From contig MFAE01000008.1 in NCBI GenBank assembly GCA_001774495.1, positions 16,150 to 57,218 on the forward strand: DNA of 41,069 nt, given 5' to 3'. Made by a program: the position numbers and the translations under genes. Position 1 is the stretch's first letter. Each line of letters opens with the position of its first letter. This DNA comes from Candidatus Campbellbacteria bacterium RIFOXYC2_FULL_35_25 (GTDB taxonomy: Bacteria > Patescibacteriota > Minisyncoccia > Phycocordibacterales > UBA12079). Under the pieces are notes generated by a model. It saw nothing but the letters and a program-made list of their open reading frames with translations. It searched no databases and had not been told where the DNA came from. This document shows positions 1,938-40,476 of this stretch, one piece after another.

Positions 1938-3686
1938 ATGCGAATAGACAAAAAAAAGCTCGAAGAATTTATTAAAGACTCAGGTCTTGTTTCTAAATCT
2001 GATTTAGAAATGGCAATAGTAGAGGCAGAAAAAAGTGATTCCGATGTTGCTAATATTTTGGTTGGGATGGGGAAGCTCACCGAAGATGAAGTAAGAAGGA
2101 TTAAAGCCTATATTTTAGGGATTCCTTTTATAAATCTCGTTGGGAAAAAAATTGATTTTGATGTTTTGTCTATTATTCCAGAGCCTATTGCGAGAAACCA
2201 TAATATTATTGCATTTAAGAAAACAGACACAGAACTTGAAGTTGCTATGTTGAATGTAGACGACTTGGAAGCAATAAACTTTATAAAAAAGAAAGTAGAC
2301 CTAAAGATTCTCCCTCGTTTAACTGGAGAAGACTCCATCAAGAACACACTCCTTCAATATCAAAAAACTTTGAAGGCAGAGTTCGGTGACATAATTCAAA
2401 AACAATCTCAATCACTTGAAACCATTCCGGTGGAGAATATGGACAATATCTCTAAAGAAGATTTAAAAAAAATAGCAGAAGATTTGCCTGTTATTCGTAT
2501 AGTAGATACATTATTAAAACACGCGATAATACAAGACGCTTCAGATATTCATATTGAACCAATGGAGGACAAACTTCTCGTCCGCTATAGAATAGATGGA
2601 ATGCTTCACGACGCCATGATTTTACCAAAAAATGCGGCAGCTAGTATCACTGCGAGAATAAAGGTTTTGTCCAACCTAAAACTTGATGAAAAGAGGTTGC
2701 CCCAGGACGGCCGTTTTAAGGTAAAAGCAGAAGACCAAGAAGTTTCTTTTAGAGTTTCTATTCTTCCTGTTTATCACGGTGAGAAAGCCGTTTTGAGACT
2801 TTTGAAGGAAAGCGTTTCGGGCCTTACCCTAGAAGTTCTTGGTTTCCATGGCGATGGTTTGGAGAGAATTTATTCTGCTATGAAACGAAAAACTGGTATG
2901 ATTTTAACAACTGGTCCGACTGGGTCAGGTAAAACTACCACTCTTTATACACTTTTAGATAACTTGAATGAACCCAGTGTAAATATTTCTACAATAGAAG
3001 ACCCGATAGAATATCAAATGCCCAGAATAAATCAAACTCAAGTTAAGCCAGATATTGGTTTTACTTTTTCAAGCGGATTAAGGTCCCTTGTTCGTCAGGA
3101 CCCCGATATTATCATGGTGGGTGAGATTAGAGATAATGAAACTGCCTCTTTGGCAGTCAATGCAGCCCTAACAGGACACTTAGTTTTATCGACACTCCAC
3201 ACAAACTCAGCCGCAGGAGCGATGCCTAGATTTATTGATATGAAAATAGACCCGTTTTTACTCGTGTCGACTTTGGGGGTAATTATTGGGCAGAGACTTG
3301 TTCGTCGCTTGAATGATGATGGGGAAAAATATTTCTTATCGAAATCAGAAATTACTTCTCTGGGCAAGCTTGTTGATTTGGACAGGATGTTATTTTTTTT
3401 GAGGAAAGAAAAAATTATTGGGCAAACTGAGACTTGGGCCAATATCCCTTTTTATAAACCAAAAGTAAAAGAAGGTTCCGATGGATATGCAGGAAGAGTT
3501 GGTATTCATGAGATTTTGCCGGTTTCTAGCACGATAAAAGATTTGATCATTAAAAATGCGACATCAGAGAAGATAGAGGAACAAGCGAAAGACGAAGGGA
3601 TGATGACGATGATTGAAGATGGTATTTTTAAAGCTAGTCAGGGGATTACGACTATTGAGGAAGTTTTGCGAGTTATTTCCGAGTAA
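1938..3686 (+). CDS. pilB: Type IV pilus assembly ATPase, GspE/PilB family
   Basis: ASDIHIEP, RYRIDG, PQDGR, Walker A GPTGSGKTT, EDPIEY, RQDPDIIMVGEIRD, TGHLVLSTLH. Confidence 0.93.
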   Translation: MRIDKKKLEEFIKDSGLVSKSDLEMAIVEAEKSDSDVANILVGMGKLTEDEVRRIKAYILGIPFINLVGKKIDFDVLSIIPEPIARNHNIIAFKKTDTELEVAMLNVDDLEAINFIKKKVDLKILPRLTGEDSIKNTLLQYQKTLKAEFGDIIQKQSQSLETIPVENMDNISKEDLKKIAEDLPVIRIVDTLLKHAIIQDASDIHIEPMEDKLLVRYRIDGMLHDAMILPKNAAASITARIKVLSNLKLDEKRLPQDGRFKVKAEDQEVSFRVSILPVYHGEKAVLRLLKESVSGLTLEVLGFHGDGLERIYSAMKRKTGMILTTGPTGSGKTTTLYTLLDNLNEPSVNISTIEDPIEYQMPRINQTQVKPDIGFTFSSGLRSLVRQDPDIIMVGEIRDNETASLAVNAALTGHLVLSTLHTNSAAGAMPRFIDMKIDPFLLVSTLGVIIGQRLVRRLNDDGEKYFLSKSEITSLGKLVDLDRMLFFLRKEKIIGQTETWANIPFYKPKVKEGSDGYAGRVGIHEILPVSSTIKDLIIKNATSEKIEEQAKDEGMMTMIEDGIFKASQGITTIEEVLRVISE

Positions 3687-3810
3687 ATAATTTCAAAATA
3701 GGATTAAATTATTTTAAAGCGATGGAAAAATATAAATACAAAGAAACTAAAAACAAAATAAAACAAAAAAAGGCTGTCCGACAGCCTAATTTTTTGTTGT
3801 GAATTTTTTT

Positions 3811-3840
3811 CTACTCACTACCAACTACAAACTACTCACT
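3811..3840. repeat. Heptamer repeat (CTACTCA family) upstream of pilC
   Basis: ctactcactaccaactacaaactactcact. Confidence 0.8.
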
Positions 3841-3894
3841 AAACCAATCTATTCACTTTTAACTTTATGCTTTCTACCTTATACTTATGAATAT

Positions 3895-5106
3895 ATGCCC
3901 GTATTTAAATATAAAGCAATAAAAGAAACAGGGGAGGTTTACAATAGCTCAACCGGTGCAAAAGACGAGGAGGAGCTGAAAAAGATAATAAGAGATCAAG
4001 GAGGGTCACTTATTAGTTGTGAGAAGGGGATGGGAGGATGGGGTTCCCTTAAAAATATTTCTTTTGGGGGTTCTGTAAAAATGCAGGACAAAATTATATT
4101 TGCGAAAAATTTAGCGGCTATGATTAGTGCGGGGCTTTCTGTTTCAAAATCATTAACTACTTTAGAAAAACAATTTAAAAATCCATTATTTAAAAAAGTC
4201 ATAGGCGAGATAAATGTAAAGATTAAAGGGGGGCAAACTATAGGTGCTTCAATGAAAGATCATCCAAAAGTTTTTTCTCCACTATTTGTTTCTATGGTAA
4301 GGGCGGGAGAGGAAAGCGGAAATATTTCAAATTCTTTAATGATTGTTTGCGAACAAATGGAAAATTCTTATGCTTTAAAAAAAAGAGTGAAGGGGGCATT
4401 AATTTATCCAACAATAATCTTCATTGTTATGATGATTATTGGAGTGTTGATGCTTATTTTTATAGTACCAACTCTTCAGGCTACTTTTGCTGATTTAGGG
4501 ACCGATTTACCGTTTAGTACTCAGATTATAATTTCTACTAGTGATCTTTTAAAGAATCATTCGATTCTTTTTATTGCTATTGTTTTTGCTATTGTTTTTC
4601 TTATTATTCTTGCTTTTAAAACCAAAAAAGGTCAGAGAATTATTGATATCATATCTTTGAAAACTCCCATGATTTCTTCTATTACCAAAGAGATAAATTC
4701 TGCTTATACCGCGAGGACATTATCTTCCCTTCTTTCTTCGGGGGTTGATGTTTTAAGTGCTTTTGAGATTACTGAAGATGTTTTGCAGAATTCATTTTAT
4801 AAAGAGGTTCTCGGAAAAGCGAGGGAGGGAATTCAAAAAGGAGATCCTGTGGCGGATGTTTTTCTTAAGAATGAAGACTTGTTTCCTCCGATTGTTAGTG
4901 CCATGGTTGAGGTTGGAGAAGAAACTGGAAAATTACCAACCATGCTTCTAAGTGTGGCAGATTTTTACGAAAAAGAAGTTGCCCAAAAAACAAAAAACAT
5001 GTCAGTAATCATTGAACCTGTTTTAATGGTGTTTATTGGTTTGGCTGTTGGCTTTTTTGCGGTTTCTATGATTACCCCAATGTATTCGGTAATGGCGAAT
5101 ATATAA
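3895..5106 (+). CDS. pilC: Type IV pilus platform protein, GspF/PilC family
   Basis: MPVFKYKA start, AGEESG, ALIYP, GEETGKL, IEP motifs; two T2SSF repeats with TM segments. Confidence 0.93.
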   Translation: MPVFKYKAIKETGEVYNSSTGAKDEEELKKIIRDQGGSLISCEKGMGGWGSLKNISFGGSVKMQDKIIFAKNLAAMISAGLSVSKSLTTLEKQFKNPLFKKVIGEINVKIKGGQTIGASMKDHPKVFSPLFVSMVRAGEESGNISNSLMIVCEQMENSYALKKRVKGALIYPTIIFIVMMIIGVLMLIFIVPTLQATFADLGTDLPFSTQIIISTSDLLKNHSILFIAIVFAIVFLIILAFKTKKGQRIIDIISLKTPMISSITKEINSAYTARTLSSLLSSGVDVLSAFEITEDVLQNSFYKEVLGKAREGIQKGDPVADVFLKNEDLFPPIVSAMVEVGEETGKLPTMLLSVADFYEKEVAQKTKNMSVIIEPVLMVFIGLAVGFFAVSMITPMYSVMANI

Positions 5107-5112
5107 TTTAGG

Positions 5113-5216
5113 ACAAAGAAACAAAGAAACAAAGAAACAAAGAAACAAAGAAACAAAGAAACAAAAAAACAAAGAAACAAAGAAACAAAGAAACAAAGAA
5201 ACAAAGAAACAAAAAA
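5113..5216. repeat. Octamer tandem repeat (ACAAAGAA)6 ACAAAAAA (ACAAAGAA)5 ACAAAAAA, 13 units
   Basis: Counted directly; fills the pilC-pilin intergenic region. Confidence 0.97.
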
Positions 5217-5227
5217 TAATAAATATT

Positions 5228-5725
5228 ATGATGAGAAAAAACTTAAATCTACTCACTACTCACTACTCACTACAAACTAAATCCGGATTTAGCTTGTTAG
5301 AAATGTTGTTTGTGATTGGAATTATGGCAATTCTTTTTTTGATAGGAACAAAAATTTTTTCAAATTCGAGTCCAAAGTATAAAGTTGATAATGCCGTCGT
5401 TATTGTTTTAAATTTATTAAATGAAGCAAAATCAATGACATCCTCGGCTGTAGGTTCTTCTCAGTATGGAGTTCATTTTGAAACAACAACCCTAACCCTA
5501 TTTAAGGGAGAAACTTTTTCTGCAGTTGATCCAAATAACAGAGAAATAATTTTAAATGAAAATGTTAATCTTTCAAATATAAGCCTTGCTGGAGGAGGGG
5601 CTGATGTCGTCTTCAATAAATTAATAGGGACAACTGATCATCATGGGACGGTAACTATTTCTCTCGTCTCTGATTTATCTGTGAATGAAATAGTTACAAT
5701 TTTATCAACAGGAATCTCTTACTAA
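5228..5725 (+). CDS. Minor type IV pilin (prepilin N-methylation domain)
   Basis: Class III signal G|FSLLEMLFVIGIMAIL. Confidence 0.88.
   Translation: MMRKNLNLLTTHYSLQTKSGFSLLEMLFVIGIMAILFLIGTKIFSNSSPKYKVDNAVVIVLNLLNEAKSMTSSAVGSSQYGVHFETTTLTLFKGETFSAVDPNNREIILNENVNLSNISLAGGGADVVFNKLIGTTDHHGTVTISLVSDLSVNEIVTILSTGISY
5249..5278. repeat. (CTACTCA)3-CTACAAA-CT heptamer repeat inside the prepilin leader coding region
   Basis: Encodes LLTTHYSLQT upstream of the G|F cleavage site. Confidence 0.85.
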
Positions 5726-5728
5726 ATC

Positions 5729-6211
5729 ATGCTTAAAAATATAGATAAAACAAAAGGTTCAGGATTTGTAGAGTTGATAATCGGCTTATCAATAATTTTT
5801 GTGGCCCTCACTTCCGTTGTTTCTTCTTATAATTTTTTCTTTAAGGTTGCTAAAAATAACACGAAAGTAATAAAAGCTGAGTTTTTGTTAGAAGAGGGGG
5901 TTGAGGTTTTAAAATTTGTAAGAGATTCTGATTGGACTAATATCTCAAGTCTTTCCTCTGGTTCTGATTATTATTTGTCGTTTGACGGCAGTCTCTGGAG
6001 TGTTTCAAACACTAATGTTTACATTGACGATACTTATGAGAGAAAGTTTGTCATTTCTGATGTCTATCGAGATGTTGATGATAATATTGCCGGTATGGGG
6101 GCTCTCGATATAGGGACAAAGGATATCGAGGTTTTTGTTTCTTGGTTGAGTTCAGGGGCCACATCGACGAGATCAATCAATATAATTTTAACGGATTTAT
6201 TCAGTGAATAA
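5729..6211 (+). CDS. Minor type IV pilin (PilV-like), atypical KG|SGFVE cleavage site
   Basis: Basic leader, E at +5, hydrophobic helix; position in the operon. Confidence 0.8.
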   Translation: MLKNIDKTKGSGFVELIIGLSIIFVALTSVVSSYNFFFKVAKNNTKVIKAEFLLEEGVEVLKFVRDSDWTNISSLSSGSDYYLSFDGSLWSVSNTNVYIDDTYERKFVISDVYRDVDDNIAGMGALDIGTKDIEVFVSWLSSGATSTRSINIILTDLFSE

Positions 6212-6213
6212 AT

Positions 6214-6723
6214 ATGTCATATAAAAAAGGATTTTCATTAATAGAGGTTTTGGTTTATATAGCGGTTATGGTTATCGTTCTGCTTATTGTTGTTAATACC
6301 GCGTTACTCATGACTAAAGCTTATCAGGAAATGAGGTTGTCAGTAAACATGAATAATTCCGCCGTAAGTATTTTAGAAAGAATGAGTCGTGAGGCGCGGT
6401 GGTCTTCTAGTGTTAATACCACGGATAGTATTTTGAATAATAATTCTGGCCTCTTAGTTTTGAATAGAATTGATGAGTCGGAAGTGACAACTGAAATTAG
6501 GTTTTATATTGAAAATGGTAGTTTGGTGATAAAAGAAGGGTTGTCTGATGCTGTGGCTTTGAACGCGCCAGGTAAGGTTTTTGTTGATAAATTTTTTGTA
6601 ACAAGGATTGATAGCGGGATATCAGAAATGGTAAAGATTGAAATTGAATTAAGAGGGATGTTGAAGGACAGAATAAAAATGGAAACATTCTATGACTCGA
6701 TTATTTTAAGAGAGTCCTATTGA
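6214..6723 (+). CDS. Minor type IV pilin (PilW-like)
   Basis: KKG|FSLIEVLVYIAVM. Confidence 0.88.
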   Translation: MSYKKGFSLIEVLVYIAVMVIVLLIVVNTALLMTKAYQEMRLSVNMNNSAVSILERMSREARWSSSVNTTDSILNNNSGLLVLNRIDESEVTTEIRFYIENGSLVIKEGLSDAVALNAPGKVFVDKFFVTRIDSGISEMVKIEIELRGMLKDRIKMETFYDSIILRESY

Positions 6724-17996: not shown

Positions 17997-19532
17997 ATGC
18001 AAAAAGATTTTTTCTACATCGTCCTATTGGGTTTTGCGGGCGGAATATTTCTTCGCTCGTTTTTTAATTTTGGAATACCATTTTCATTGTTGTTTTTATT
18101 TGTGGGAAGTACAATTTTTGTATTCTGGTATTTTAAAAAGGGAGGTGATAAAAAACATGAGCAAGAAAAAATTTTGATAACCGGGTTATTGTTGTTTTTT
18201 ATGGGAATGGGGATGTTACGTTTTGATATAGATGATTTTGGTAAAAATAATTCAATCTTAGGTAATTTAGTTGGTGAAAAAATTGTTGCTACGGCTTTGG
18301 TCGTAGATGAACCAGATGTAAGAGAAACCAATACTCGTTTAACAATAAAATTTGAAGACATGCCCTCTATTTGGGGGTTCAACCCCCAAATAGAGGGGGG
18401 TGTTGGCGGGAAGGTGATTATTACAGTTAATCATTATCCTCAATTTAGCTATGGTGATGAAATTAATATAACTGGGATTTTGCAAAAACCAAAAAATTTT
18501 AATACAGACGATGATGGAGGAATGGAATTTGACTATGTTTCTTATTTAGCTAAAGATGGAATTTATTATCAAATGCTTAATCCCACCGTCACATTTATTT
18601 CAGACGGAAATGGAAATTTTATAAAAGAAAAACTGTTTGCTCTTAAAAATTCTTTTATACAACAAGTTAGAAAGTTAGTTCCAGAACCCCACTCAGCTCT
18701 TTTGGGTGGTTTGGTCGTTGGGGCAAAAGAATCCTTAGGTAAAGGCTTGCAGGAAGATTTTAGAAAGGTTGGTTTAATCCACATCGTTGTTTTATCGGGT
18801 TACAATTTAACCATTGTAGCTGATTCTATAATGAAAATTCTAGTTTTTTTGCCGAGCAGTTTTGCTATGATTTTTGGTGCCCTAGGTATAATTTTATTTA
18901 CTTTGATGACAGGAGCTTCGGCAACTATTGTTAGAGCTTCGATAATGGCCCTGCTAGTTATGCTAGCAAGGCTAACAGGGCGAACTAATCAAGTTACCCG
19001 AACTCTTTTCTTGGCGGGTTTTTTGATGCTTTTACATAATCCTAAAATTTTAGTTTTTGACCCGTCTTTCCAACTTTCTTTCATGGCAACCTTGGGGCTT
19101 ATCATCCTTTCCCCAAAAATTGAAAAATATTTCCATTTTTTACCAACCAAATTTCAGTTACGCGAATTAGCCGTGGCTACAATTTCCACCCAAATTTTTG
19201 TTTTGCCACTCATTTTATATATGATGGGGGATTTTTCTATTATTGCTATTGTGGTTAATCTTTTGGTTTTGATGTTTATACCAATCACAATGTTATTTGG
19301 TTTTTTTACAGGGGTGCTGGCCTTTTTGAGCACAGCCGTCGCCCTACCTTTTGCTTATATTTCTTACTTTCTTCTCTCTTATGAGTTGAAGGTAGTTGAT
19401 ATTTTTTCTTCATTACCTTTTGCCTCAATCCATATTCCTTATTTCCCGTTCTGGTTGATGGTATTTGTTTATGCCAGTTATTTTATTTTCCTGGGCTTTT
19501 TAAGTAAGAAAGAAAAGAAACCTTGTTTTTAA
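17997..19532 (+). CDS. comEC: DNA uptake channel ComEC/Rec2 (no C-terminal metallo-beta-lactamase domain)
   Basis: N-terminal OB/DUF4131-like region, GLIHIVVLSGYN, RASIMA, SFQLSF..T motifs, many TM segments. Confidence 0.92.
   Translation: MQKDFFYIVLLGFAGGIFLRSFFNFGIPFSLLFLFVGSTIFVFWYFKKGGDKKHEQEKILITGLLLFFMGMGMLRFDIDDFGKNNSILGNLVGEKIVATALVVDEPDVRETNTRLTIKFEDMPSIWGFNPQIEGGVGGKVIITVNHYPQFSYGDEINITGILQKPKNFNTDDDGGMEFDYVSYLAKDGIYYQMLNPTVTFISDGNGNFIKEKLFALKNSFIQQVRKLVPEPHSALLGGLVVGAKESLGKGLQEDFRKVGLIHIVVLSGYNLTIVADSIMKILVFLPSSFAMIFGALGIILFTLMTGASATIVRASIMALLVMLARLTGRTNQVTRTLFLAGFLMLLHNPKILVFDPSFQLSFMATLGLIILSPKIEKYFHFLPTKFQLRELAVATISTQIFVLPLILYMMGDFSIIAIVVNLLVLMFIPITMLFGFFTGVLAFLSTAVALPFAYISYFLLSYELKVVDIFSSLPFASIHIPYFPFWLMVFVYASYFIFLGFLSKKEKKPCF
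18363..18397. repeat. Perfect 15-bp-stem inverted repeat inside comEC
   Basis: ccctctatttggggg-ttcaa-cccccaaatagaggg. Confidence 0.85.
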
Positions 19533-28902: not shown

Positions 28903-29124
28903 TGTGGAGATGGGGAGAATTGGTCACGAGTCACTAAGCATATTTTTCGTGCTTCGCACTCAAATCTGCTAAGTGCTCTCGACCCCGCCTCACTGTTGCT
29001 CCTGCGTCGCAACATGTTCCGGCTTTCGATTCTCGCTCGCAAAGTACGCAGGTACTTTGCTCATCTCCACATAATATAAAAACCGCCAGCTTATTGCTGG
29101 CGGTTTTTATATTATGTGGAGATG
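28903..29124. repeat. Direct and inverted degenerate copies of the tmRNA 3' end interleaved with hairpins
   Basis: tgtggagatggggagaat at 28903; ttcgattctcgc...catctccaca at 29028-29071; 29-bp perfect inverted repeat 29062-29090/29096-29124. Confidence 0.8.
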
Positions 29125-32759: not shown

Positions 32760-33206
32760 ATGAAAAAAAGACTAATACTTATTTTAATTGTAACGGCACT
32801 GATTGTTTGGGATCAAGCCTATATTCCTGATAATTTAGGTTCTTTCCAAAAACAAGCAGAGGAGATTTATAAAGATAGAGTATTGCCAACAAAAAAATTT
32901 ACAACGGACGGTTGTTCAATGTGGCCGAACTCAACGGCTGGTTATTCTTGGGAAGAATTATGTATAGAACATGACATTGCTTATTGGATGGGAGGGACAG
33001 AACAAGAAAGACTTGAGGCTGACCAAAAATTCAGAGATGGCGTAAATAAAATTTCACCATTTGTTGGAGACGTTATGTATTATGCTGTTCGTTTGGGTGG
33101 AAATAAATGGGTCCCAGCTCCTTGGCGTTGGGGTTATGGCTGGGCTTATCCTTACGACGAACAAGAGGTAATTGTTTGGGATGAATTGCATAATAATAAG
33201 CTCTAA
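32760..33206 (+). CDS. Exported protein with a prokaryotic phospholipase A2-like motif
   Basis: Signal/TM anchor; TDGCS, CIEHDIAY (His-Asp), ERLEADQKF. Confidence 0.6.
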   Translation: MKKRLILILIVTALIVWDQAYIPDNLGSFQKQAEEIYKDRVLPTKKFTTDGCSMWPNSTAGYSWEELCIEHDIAYWMGGTEQERLEADQKFRDGVNKISPFVGDVMYYAVRLGGNKWVPAPWRWGYGWAYPYDEQEVIVWDELHNNKL

Positions 33207-33318
33207 TTATTTTTAATGAAAAAGTTAGTTGGGTTGATTAAATAATGATTTTTAGGTAAAGTTTGATATACTTTTAGTTGTTTGGTCGTATTTATACATA
33301 AATTTTTGAAAATTTTGT

Positions 33319-33391
33319 GCGCGTGTAGCTCAGTTGGTAGAGCGCAGAGCTTATACCTCTGTGGTCCCAGGTTCGAGTCCTGGCGCGCGCA
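33319..33391 (+). tRNA. tRNA-Ile(UAU)
   Basis: GCGCGTG/CGCGCGC acceptor, GCTC/GAGC D-stem, CAGAG-CT[TAT]AC-CTCTG anticodon arm, CCAGG-TTCGAGT-CCTGG T-arm; 73 nt; CCA not encoded. Confidence 0.93.
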
Positions 33392-33404
33392 CAAAGTTTT
33401 TAAA

Positions 33405-33709
33405 ATGTGTGGTAGCTCAGTTGGACAAAAAGCAAATTTCTTTGCTTTTTGTCCGGTTTTTGTTGAAAGCAAAAAATTTTCGTTATCGAGCGAAGCGAGA
33501 TAGGAAATAGGAGGAAGAGTGCAGAGCTTATAATTTCAAGCGAGGACGACATAAAAATAAATAAAATAATTTTTTTGTTATTTTATTTATTTTTGTATTG
33601 TCCGAGTGATGGAATTATATCGAAGATATATCTCTGTGGTTTGCCGTTGCTTTAAATTGTTTTTAAATTAAAACAATTTAAAGAGGTTCGAGTCCTGGCG
33701 CGCGCACCA
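33405..33709 (+). pseudogene. Second tRNA-Ile(UAU) copy split by three hairpin insertions
   Basis: Segments tagctcagttgg (to 33424), gagtgcagagcttata (33517-33532), ctctgtggt (33632-33640), aggttcgagtcctggcgcgcgcacca (33684-33709). Confidence 0.85.
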
Positions 33710-33817
33710 AGTTTTTAAAATTATACTTTAAGTTGTATTATTTTCTATATCATGGTTCAATTAAGTTAGAAGTATTGGGGTATTAAATAGTATTCAACCA
33801 AAAGAGGAGGATCGATT

Positions 33818-34024
33818 ATGCGACATTTTGTCAGAATCAACCCGTCTTTGGTAGAAGCTGTTATCTTACACACGCCAGGCAAAAAGAGACCCGCTGTTAT
33901 TTTTGTTGGACTCGGGACAAGGAATGATCCTGTTGAAATCATTGAAAGATACTCGTCTCAAAATGTATGTGACATTTCGGAGTTGGATGGGACCGTCCAT
34001 GTCTTCTCAACAGGAAATTGTTAA
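33818..34024 (+). CDS. Hypothetical protein (68 aa), orphan with SD
   Basis: GAGGAGG before ATG; terminator-like hairpin 34044-34078. Confidence 0.6.
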   Translation: MRHFVRINPSLVEAVILHTPGKKRPAVIFVGLGTRNDPVEIIERYSSQNVCDISELDGTVHVFSTGNC

Positions 34025-34098
34025 TGGTCCAGAACAGAGCCCACCCCTTTCTCGCGAGAGAAGGGGCATTTTTTTATTTAATTTCTTGTGATTTAGAG

Positions 34099-34124
34099 AA
34101 GGCCACCGTACGGGCGGTGGCCTT
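34099..34124. terminator. Hairpin between convergent orphan genes
   Basis: AAGGCCACCG-tacggg-CGGTGGCCTT. Confidence 0.7.
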
Positions 34125-34159
34125 GGTCCCATTTTGGGAAAATATTTTCGCAAAGATTT

Positions 34160-34357
34160 TTATTTTTTCTCTTCGCGACAAAACTCACACTCACACCCCA
34201 GGGGGTGTTCTCCTCTTCCACCGACAACTACAGCTGGGGCATTTGTTCCCTTTGAGATTCTGGTTCCTCCTGGTAATGTATGCATGTTTCCGCAGGACCT
34301 CGCTTTGTGGGAGCTGCCCCTAGCACTTCTTCCCCAACCGCCTCTGCCTTTTGCCAT
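34160..34357 (-). CDS. Small basic Gly/Arg-rich protein (65 aa) with a C-terminal CxCxxC
   Basis: AAAGGA before ATG 34357; TAGACA-N17-TATTAT promoter upstream. Confidence 0.55.
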   Translation of the reverse strand: MAKGRGGWGRSARGSSHKARSCGNMHTLPGGTRISKGTNAPAVVVGGRGEHPLGCECEFCREEKK

Positions 34358-34467
34358 GGTTTGTTTTCCTTTGTTGAGATTATTGCCGACCAACTTGTCT
34401 AAATTTCTGCGCTAAATAATATATTATTGTATAGATTCTGTCTATTTTTTGTTTCTATTTTGTATTT

Positions 34468-40252: not shown

Positions 40253-40476
40253 GGGAGGGATTTGGTCACAAATAATTTTTCTTTGAAAAATTTTCGCGAC
40301 CCCGACTCGTCTGTCTCGCTTCGCTCGACATAACTCCGTCCCTTGATTTCAGACAGAAAACAAAGCAGTTTGCTTTCTTTTCTGATAAATATTTTTTATA
40401 AAAGATAAAAAATATTTATCAGAACTTAAATCAAGCCTCGGCACGTTAGCAGTGTGCTGGTTTCACCCACCTCTCC
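40253..40476 (-). pseudogene. Upstream tRNA-Ser(GCU) copy with a D-loop deletion and hairpin insertions
   Basis: ggagaggtgggtga[delta gtggttta]aaccagcacactgctaacgtgccgagg retained; then inserts; aaatccctccc at 40253-40263. Confidence 0.85.

Follow-up and report, generated by a model that had tools for sequence, protein, structure and literature searches.

A probably superseded tRNA-Ile(UAU) gene copy, interrupted by three hairpin modules, beside the intact gene in a Paceibacteria genome

A second, interrupted copy of the tRNA-Ile(UAU) gene has been found 14 nucleotides (nt) downstream of the intact gene in Candidatus Campbellbacteria bacterium RIFOXYC2_FULL_35_25, an ultra-small groundwater bacterium of the Paceibacteria, within the candidate phyla radiation (CPR). 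Both copies lie in a stretch of 41,069 nt of contig MFAE01000008.1 (hereafter the window, whose own numbering is used throughout), in which positions 33319-33392 of the forward strand hold the sole intact tRNA-Ile(UAU) called by ARAGORN and Rfam, and positions 33405-33722 remain uncalled. The latter segment is probably a superseded old copy of the gene, dead as a gene and interrupted by three hairpin modules that carry no protein gene, a state that would have been reached by replacement of the resident gene by a cassette bearing a working tRNA. The locus has been compared with 80 related recG loci (L001-L080) from metagenome-assembled genomes (MAGs) of the Paceibacteria type and with a group of closer relatives (L201-L208). 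Coordinates of the individual features are collected in Table 1.

By gapped alignment and with a repeat finder, the second copy resolves into four collinear blocks, which correspond to tRNA positions 7-19 (33412-33424, 13/13 identical), 18-37 (33513-33532, 18/20), 34-47 (33627-33640, 13/14) and 51-76 plus the trailer (33684-33721, 37/38). The chain score of this arrangement is 118.3, compared with 44.3 +/- 4.6 for shuffles of the region (maximum 61 in 500; z = 16) and with a best score of 64 among 228 other real stretches of the window. The tandem second copy proposed in the initial annotation is thus borne out by a formal alignment. The region is contained unchanged in contigs of independent public DNA metagenome runs, and a 429-nt contig from another study spans 33388-33816 without differences; an assembly artefact is excluded for this reason, and the region can be taken as real.

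The two ends of the old copy differ in their state of preservation. At the 3' end, piece 4 matches 33369-33406 of the live gene and its trailer in 37 of 38 positions, the sole difference being an A to C change at 33708 in the ACAAAG trailer, which creates the encoded CCA (33707-33709); the shared trailer and the CCA had been read correctly from the start, and the identical stretch before the change is 24 nt long rather than the 23 nt first counted. The CCA is probably a coincidence, because the live tRNA-Ile genes at nine other loci all end in AC followed by a trailer that is not CCA. The resulting direct repeat of the tRNA 3' part (33369-33406 and 33684-33721) bounds 277 bp and has a period of 315 bp. 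At the 5' end, the acceptor strand had been described as degenerate. The alignment with the corresponding outer copy of L206, in which TTTGTGT-GGGCGAA-TAGC is set against ATGTGTGG-TAGC of the window, corrects this description, as ATGTGTG is the leader of the old copy and 5 nt of the acceptor 5' strand have been deleted. The old copy also carries the D-arm variant GGAAGAG, as do the outer copies of L203 and L206, in place of the GGTAGAG of the live gene.

The three inserts measure 88, 94 and 43 nt; the last length agrees with the initial annotation, which had estimated about 92 and 99 nt for the other two. The D-loop and 37/38 sites stand as first described, and the third site, formerly assigned to the variable loop, lies at the boundary between variable loop and T-stem, where the insert replaces CCC; the break falls inside the T-stem at 50/51 if the first TTGCC is counted as exon. 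Perfect or near-perfect hairpins have been located by the repeat finder inside every insert, and the fold of the whole broken-copy stretch, a check suggested in the same annotation, reaches -103.4 kcal/mol (z = -8.85). Insert 2 is flanked on both sides by a duplicated TATA, which is the anticodon plus A37 (33529-33532 and 33627-33630), and its ends form inverted repeats; insert 1 shows only an ambiguous duplication of GG and insert 3 none. Hairpin 1 of insert 1, together with a run of T, is the only terminator-like site found by a terminator scan in 33100-33900. Since it sits 27 nt downstream of the live tRNA, most of the old copy may be untranscribed from the promoter of the live gene.

The live gene is itself part of a larger unit. 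Its leader and trailer form an inverted repeat of 20 nt with 90% complementarity (repeat finder), the duplex of which has a predicted energy of -11.2 kcal/mol (z = -3.2 to -3.6 against shuffles). Live tRNA and leader-trailer stalk of about 15 bp together make up a 105-bp unit, here called the stalked tRNA cassette. A leader-trailer stalk (z <= -3 against shuffled trailers) is present in 9 of 62 tRNA-Ile(UAU) genes beside recG, and partial tRNA-Ile copies were found within 700 nt of 7 of the 9 stalked genes and of 0 of the 53 unstalked ones (nhmmer profile built from 57 tRNA-Ile genes; Fisher p = 7e-8). In the remaining two stalked genes, those of L206 and L071, partial copies are visible by eye. 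None of the outer copies in the related loci was called by ARAGORN in intron mode.

The tRNA-Ile(UAU) gene lies downstream of recG in 57 of the 80 loci surveyed, and in a minority of loci the intact gene has fragments of its own sequence as neighbours. In L076, L005, L015 and L041 the order is a 5' half, an insert, a complete tRNA-Ile and then a 3' half. The 5' halves end in the anticodon region, with CTTATA in L076, L005 and L041 and CTTTTA in L015, and the 3' half restarts at the anticodon TATA in these four loci and in L205; only remnants of the anticodon loop are left in the old copies of L203 and L206. The cassette is nested in the anticodon loop of the broken copy in L203, L205, L206, L076, L005, L015 and L041, whereas in the window it stands in tandem, on the 5' side of the broken copy, and for this reason the window is a variant state of a nested-cassette family. 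A comparison of orthologous loci, proposed in the initial annotation with a stepwise gain of inserts in mind, accordingly returned homologous inserts at the same sites, but mostly nested live cassettes instead of a simple tandem arrangement. Several of these loci hold further fragments. In L076 (9643-11085), the nested tRNA-Ile is followed at distances of 446 and 1026 nt by two more 3' fragments, which cover tRNA positions 44-70 and alternate with open reading frames (ORFs) of 160 and 133 amino acids (aa) without Pfam match, an arrangement that resembles stacked small cassettes ending in tRNA 3' ends. In L013 (4558-4637) a run of N starts right after the CTTATA of a tRNA-Ile 5' half and makes the locus, a possible case of an interrupted copy as the sole gene, unreadable from there. 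In L007 (5027-5126) the tRNA 3' end is present twice, and another run of N separates the two copies, starting just behind the first; both runs may be scaffold gaps or masked sequence. The UAU anticodon as reader of AUA, rare elsewhere, is the rule in this group, and the synteny with recG is old.

Closer to the window, whose RecG is 54-64% identical to that of species-representative MAGs and up to 81% identical to that of metagenomic relatives, the RecG tree places eight genomes in a well-supported clade. In L203 (RecG 79%), the 105-bp cassette, 92% identical to window 33302-33410, sits in the anticodon loop of an outer copy whose D-loop and variable/T inserts occupy the sites seen in the window copy. 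The basal member, L206 (74%), is also nested and has a homologue of insert 1 in its D-loop; L205 (74%) is nested, two levels deep on the 3' side, with homologues of inserts 2 and 3. Other module types occur in L204 (77%) and L208 (72%). On the other hand, L201 (81%), the sister of the window, and L207 (73%) have a plain tRNA-Ile with neither stalk nor fragments and represent the empty state. The live tRNAs of the window and L203 differ at seven positions, all of them preserving stem pairing: six are paired changes at 3-70, 5-68 and 28-42, and the seventh turns U6.G67 into C6-G67. The old copies have been damaged in different ways, as the window lacks 5 nt of the acceptor, L203 the anticodon loop and L206 the T-arm. 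Because each has lost a different essential part, no selection appears to keep the outer copies as tRNA genes.

A replacement and insertion process at the DNA level may be proposed from the anatomy, from the strict association of fragments with a stalk, from the varying place of the cassette relative to the old copy and from the plain sister loci. In this clade of Paceibacteria, stalked cassettes would repeatedly land inside or beside the resident tRNA-Ile gene, the usual landing site being the palindromic TATA of anticodon and A37, and the break in the resident gene would be tolerated, since the cassette provides a working copy. The old halves would persist as flanks and gain further hairpin modules specific to particular loops; parts of them would be kept similar to the live copy, probably by gene conversion, until they are finally lost by recombination between direct repeats. 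The window would then show a state in which the live cassette adjoins the 5' edge of the old copy, in tandem with it, and in which insert 2 consists of the two hairpins only.

The inserts are conserved to an unusual degree. In L206, the D-loop site is occupied by a full-length homologue of insert 1 that matches it at 67 of 82 aligned positions (82%; BLAST E = 2e-13) and in which 38 of 38 predicted pairs are kept, five of them changed on both sides and five on one side. Insert 2 shares 49 of 63 aligned positions with L205, and homologues of insert 3 have been found at the same site in L203 (22/30) and L205 (28/33), the stem of the former differing from that of the window by a compensatory A-T to G-C change. 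Identity between the inserts and their positional homologues in these three genomes amounts to 73-85% at aligned positions, compared with 77-93% for the live tRNA over the same genome pairs (77% for the window and L206), whereas the four-fold degenerate sites of recG are saturated, with 38-41% identity (38% for L206). Selection on the inserts is suggested by this persistence of identity where neutral sites have lost it.

The architecture of insert 2 recurs in L015, L041, L076, L005 and L205, where it comprises a base helix, a GA-rich internal loop, a variable apical hairpin and a second small hairpin. The internal loop reads 5'-A-R-Y-G-A-3' opposite 5'-G-A-R-Y-G-A-3' with invariant purines, and its middle two positions pair and covary. 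In five sequences of this family, 87.5% of the cells are paired and 9 of 16 pairs have changed on both sides, which none of 500 shuffles reached, although the alignment of five was trimmed by hand and the structure was derived from the same sequences. In the relatives, the live tRNA occupies the tip of the first hairpin (H1; L015, L041) or of the second (H2; L076, L005, L205), whereas neither hairpin of the window holds one. The GA loop was also considered as a kink-turn and as a hammerhead, but both readings were rejected, since their registers did not fit when compared by hand, without a formal test. Local multiplication of modules is indicated by L018 (9522-9772), where the sequence upstream of the live tRNA-Ile consists of a 5' half interrupted in its D-loop and, after it, three tandem H1-type units, each with the GA-loop motif. 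The inserts are accordingly structure-constrained modules, selfish or functional, and their constrained structure may act as RNA or as single-stranded DNA, both of which are candidate roles.

Modules of related type have also been found in copies of other RNA genes. Hairpin 3 of insert 1 contains a tandem-GA motif, TCGAGCGAAGCGAGA, and this 15-mer recurs at 40314-40328 in a broken copy of tRNA-Ser. The latter and a 3' copy of the transfer-messenger RNA (tmRNA) share a T-loop module of the form CGGGGTCG(C/A)G - hairpin - GTGACC, related versions of which are present in 14 other loci, 9 of them between T-loop halves of the TTCGAA and GAATCC type; in L007, one such module lies in the D-loop of a broken tRNA-Ile copy. 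A copy of 33441-33515 with about 89% identity has been detected on other contigs of runs X1, X2 and X4, and in run X1 the sequence immediately to its left resembles a D-arm from a long-arm (class II) tRNA. A 16-mer common to the window and L015, GAGTGATGGAATTATA, was used to search metagenome contigs; a match to the tRNA-Ile model was found near 2 of the 120 stretches returned. Both matches lie on the other strand at a distance of over 340 nt and look like chance, the 16-mer being too short. Another observation concerns L202, a second contig with the RecG protein of L201 (81% identical to that of the window), on which a 570-aa large serine recombinase (345-2057; Resolvase, Recombinase and Zn_ribbon_recom domains) adjoins tRNA-Ser(GCU) upstream of recG. 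This enzyme is a candidate trans-acting factor for rearrangements of tRNA genes in the clade.

Table 1. Coordinates of the tRNA-Ile(UAU) locus, its inserts and related broken copies in the window
Feature	Position	Strand	Description
Upstream 15-nt direct repeat	33267-33281	+	TATACTTTTAGTTGT; within 5' flank motif conserved in relatives
Stalk leader arm	33302-33318	+	ATTTTTGAAAATTTTGT; pairs with trailer 33391-33406
Intact live tRNA-Ile(UAU)	33319-33392	+	ARAGORN; Rfam tRNA model 72.7 bits; CCA not encoded
Stalk trailer arm	33393-33406	+	AAAGTTTTTAAAAT; second instance after broken copy at 33708-33721 (repeat finder)
Broken copy, piece 1	33405-33424	+	Leader remnant ATGTGTG and tRNA positions 7-19, GTAGCTCAGTTGG; 13/13 match
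Insert 1	33425-33512	+	D-loop after G19; 88 nt; three hairpins
Insert 1, hairpins	about 33421-33456, 33457-33475, 33476-33508		Hairpins 1 to 3
Broken copy, piece 2	33513-33532	+	Positions 18-37, GGAAGAGTGCAGAGCTTATA; ends with anticodon TAT and A37; 18/20
Insert 2	33533-33626	+	Anticodon loop 37/38; 94 nt; double hairpin
Insert 2, H1 base helix	33529-33538 with 33610-33619		Starts with anticodon TATA
Insert 2, H1 internal loop	33539-33543 and 33604-33609		GA-rich; AGCGA opposite GAGTGA
Insert 2, H1 apical hairpin	33544-33603
Insert 2, H2	33616-33630		TATATC-GAA-GATATA; ends in 3' TATA
Broken copy, piece 3	33631-33640	+	Positions 38-47, TCTCTGTGGT; 13/14 counting the preceding TATA
Insert 3	33641-33683	+	Variable-loop/T-stem boundary, in place of CCC; 43-nt single hairpin
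Insert 3, arms	33650-33663 and 33670-33683		14 bp, perfect
Broken copy, piece 4	33684-33721	+	3' part of T-arm, acceptor 3' strand, A73, encoded CCA, live-gene trailer
Downstream 15-nt direct repeat	33722-33736	+	TATACTTTAAGTTGT; directly 3' of the whole complex (repeat finder)
tmRNA T-arm/acceptor copy	28903-29040	-	Downstream of tmRNA; same T-loop module as the tRNA-Ser copy
Broken tRNA-Ser(GCU) copy	40262-40474	-	Upstream of the intact gene; T-loop module

Three other explanations have been weighed against that of a superseded copy. The least probable is a functional three-intron tRNA-Ile(UAU) spliced by a novel bacterial route, for instance by an endonuclease together with an RtcB-type ligase. 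The positions of the inserts (D-loop, 37/38 and near the T-stem) do resemble those of archaeal and red-algal multi-intron tRNAs, the anticodon is predicted to pair with the insert as in the introns of pre-tRNAs, and removal of the inserts in silico yields a UAU cloverleaf with an encoded CCA that ARAGORN accepts at a relaxed threshold. But the acceptor stem of the joined exons is flawed, as the 5-nt deletion leaves an A1.C72 mismatch and four G.U pairs, three of them additional; the stem is followed by a surplus base, the variable loop has 7 nt, and the CCA is a single A to C change in a trailer that starts with AC in the live genes of relatives. In a bulge-helix-bulge (BHB) motif, a 4-bp helix separates two 3-nt bulges, in which the two splice sites lie. 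A script that scanned 33380-33740 for such motifs as 2+4+2-bp arrangements found 181, against about 117 in shuffles, but in none of them do the bulges fall within 5 nt of the two junctions of an insert. Rfam returned no Intron_gpI match at E <= 10 in 33250-33800 and no match of any other family to the broken copy at E <= 0.1; insert 2, with its 94 nt, has no P1-P9 core; and neither a tRNA splicing endonuclease (EndA) nor an RNA ligase is found among the Pfam-scanned ORFs of the window. The orthologous copies of L203 and L206 could not yield a tRNA, an intact gene with the same anticodon stands 14 nt upstream, and insert 1 contains a terminator-like hairpin. The lack of BHB and of a group I match, the truncated acceptor, the damaged orthologues and the intact neighbour together support the view, already taken in the initial annotation, that the broken copy is not a spliced tRNA. 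An ordinary tandem duplication followed by random decay and random insertions, with no special elements involved, is likewise very improbable. The 38-nt direct repeat (37/38) bounding a 315-bp period is what such a duplication would leave, and the inserts are not repeated elsewhere in the window. It is nevertheless strongly disfavoured by the homologues of all three inserts at the same tRNA positions in other genomes, by the occurrence of the insert 2 family with its invariant loop motif in at least six genomes, by the compensatory changes in stems, by the strict link of stalk and fragments (p = 7e-8) and by the nested, not tandem, arrangement in relatives.

A more serious contender, although we consider it unlikely, is that of a structured RNA with a function of its own or with a role in cis within the precursor of tRNA-Ile. 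According to this explanation, the region or its insert modules would be under selection, for example as a terminator, as a processing scaffold or as a protein-binding platform on a tRNA-like frame. It agrees with the 38/38 pairs kept in insert 1 at 82% identity, above the 77% of the live tRNA and the 38% of neutral sites in the same comparison with L206, with the invariant purines of the insert 2 loop between covarying helices, with the fold z score of -8.85, and with the resemblance of hairpin 1 to a terminator of the live gene. The carriers are found throughout the eight-genome RecG clade, its basal member included, which fits ancestry with retention. On the other side, the sister L201 and also L207 do without the region, the broken copies are truncated differently in each genome and share no common whole structure, and the terminator-like hairpin of L206 precedes the live tRNA, a position from which it would block the transcript rather than end it. 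Related modules in broken copies of tRNA-Ser, of tmRNA and in 14 other loci, and the tandem multiplication of H1-type units in L018, also speak against it. The new structured RNA once suggested for this locus may apply to the insert modules; it does not apply to the whole 318 nt.

Returning to the superseded copy, several observations weigh against it and temper our preference for it. The inserts look too conserved for neutral debris, their stems change in a compensatory manner, and something seems to select on them; of the non-functional landing pad envisaged in the initial annotation, the dead gene with inserted modules holds, and random junk is contradicted by the positional homologues and the compensatory stems. 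A cloverleaf can be recovered in silico, as described above. Direct signs of mobility are missing: there are no dispersed copies of the inserts elsewhere in the 41-kb window, where only the 15-mer TCGAGCGAAGCGAGA recurs, and no joint skipping an insert appears in four DNA runs, a weak negative because contigs drop rare variants. No transposase, integrase or nuclease gene occurs among the Pfam-scanned ORFs of the window, and the same gene types are absent beside the nested units of L076, L015, L041, L071 and L204; domains of the GIY-YIG type, or of any other nuclease or recombinase, are found neither in the small ORFs after the locus nor in the rest of the window nor in these five relatives. 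The 277 bp between the tRNA 3' repeats consist only of tRNA pieces and hairpins, with no recombinase or cargo. One deletion alone would not convert the nested state into the tandem state of the window, so that an additional insertion or rearrangement is needed. Finally, the metatranscriptome runs searched contain neither the region nor the live tRNA and are thus uninformative on transcription.

The conservation of the modules admits several options, namely that their structure is needed for propagation, that they serve the host in termination, processing or protein binding, or that the whole complex spreads horizontally. A bolder proposal, which we put forward tentatively and regard as possible rather than probable, is that the cassette and the loop-specific modules represent an undescribed class of gene-less mobile elements of CPR bacteria that seek folded single-stranded tRNA genes. 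Such a class would include the 88-nt three-hairpin module of the D-loop, the double hairpin between TATA copies with its invariant GA loop, and the module found in the T-loop of tRNA-Ser and tmRNA copies. These elements would enter at loop positions, the host would survive because they bring along or spare a working tRNA, and selection would maintain their hairpin structure and not a protein gene. This would explain why apparent debris is about 80% identical between genomes despite saturated neutral sites.

Several known systems share part of these properties. In Archaea (Thermoproteales) and in the red alga Cyanidioschyzon merolae, tRNA introns at multiple or non-canonical positions are spliced at BHB motifs (PMC4390854, PMC4090602, PMC3728597), and some of these introns are reportedly transposable between tRNAs (Fujishima 2010, cited in PMC10714607). 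The copy described here is similar in its several short, hairpin-rich breaks at the D-loop, at 37/38 and near the T-arm, and in the recurrence of related inserts in different tRNA genes. Unlike those tRNAs, it belongs to a bacterial host (tmRNA and SmpB are encoded in the window), shows no BHB, has damaged exons, adjoins an intact paralogue and has TATA duplicated at a junction, and the corresponding insert of relatives holds a complete tRNA. In bacteria, the anticodon loop of cyanobacterial tRNA-Leu(UAA) contains a group I intron, and the smallest known group I introns have roughly 200 nt. Another example of a group I intron in the anticodon loop is that of the pre-tRNA-Ile of Azoarcus (PMC13168695). 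The bacterial host and the folded anticodon-loop insert, in Azoarcus likewise of a tRNA-Ile, are common features; the insert of 94 nt, the lack of Intron_gpI match and P1-P9 core, and the two further inserts elsewhere are not.

Elements that integrate in tRNA or tmRNA genes reportedly fall into sublocation classes, among them the anticodon loop and the T-loop, a division said to have been made by Williams in 2002. Such integrative elements restore the gene and leave a displaced partial copy. Those of actinomycetes at tRNA genes have been reviewed (PMC2440964). Likenesses to our locus are the partial copies beside an intact gene, the breaks in the anticodon loop and T-loop, and the extra DNA bounded by a 38-nt direct repeat of the tRNA 3' end, with similar situations at tRNA-Ser and tmRNA. 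Differences lie in the absence of an integrase gene or cargo, in units of about 100-300 bp with conserved hairpin modules, and in the presence of both 5' and 3' halves, which gives a nested or a full-length tandem copy. Small palindromic non-autonomous elements form another group, which includes miniature inverted-repeat transposable elements, the repetitive extragenic palindromes and bacterial interspersed mosaic elements (REP/BIME) mobilised by RAYT, integron attC sites, and the double-hairpin elements and GC clusters of fungal mitochondria. With these, the modules share hairpins without genes, a structure conserved over sequence, insertion sites that are loop-coding or palindromic and, in insert 2, a possible short target duplication (TATA). 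They depart from them in the lack of dispersed copies in the 41-kb window, in their targets, which are the loops of tRNA genes, in one type of member that bears a complete tRNA at the tip of a hairpin, and in that no matching transposase was found. A search of full-text literature returned no account of tRNA genes that are nested or interrupted by hairpins in the CPR, which is not proof of novelty, and a meeting report mentions only rRNA introns for the CPR.

As for the surroundings of the locus, a 15-nt repeat, TATACTTT(T/A)AGTTGT, identical in 14 of 15 positions, brackets the complex of live tRNA and broken copy; its significance is modest, a chance match being possible (p about 0.05 by a rough estimate). 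The 5' flank motif GATATA..TTTTAGT is also present in L201, L203 and L204. Genes for tmRNA, smpB, ftsH, recG, comEC and type IV pili are contained in the window, where 1938-6723 and 17997-19532 encode a type IV pilus/secretion ATPase, a platform protein and pseudopilins together with ComEC; this DNA-uptake machinery could import alleles of the tRNA locus, whether filled or empty. Small overlapping ORFs of 68, 101 and 93 aa occupy the interval from the tRNA complex to recG (33818-34415), and none of them matches Pfam at E <= 5. On the ftsH side of tRNA-Ile, an ASCH-domain gene is found in L203, L204, L205, L206 and L207, and a PLA2-like gene in the window.

The finding bears on how tRNA genes are counted and on which motifs deserve attention. 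Such loci are missed or miscalled by tRNA finders, so that tRNA counts of CPR bacteria may be biased, and if the runs of N in L013 and L007 are gaps, assemblers break at these places and nested loci are probably under-represented in MAGs. The GA-rich internal loop and the three-hairpin D-loop module are candidate new motifs of RNA or single-stranded DNA that may have a protein partner. If the proposed history is true, tRNA genes in reduced genomes would be sites of repeated replacement and not static single copies, the loops of the predecessor would fill with folded modules conserved as strongly as the tRNA itself, and this would be a novel means by which selfish or regulatory DNA persists on essential RNA genes while the host stays alive.

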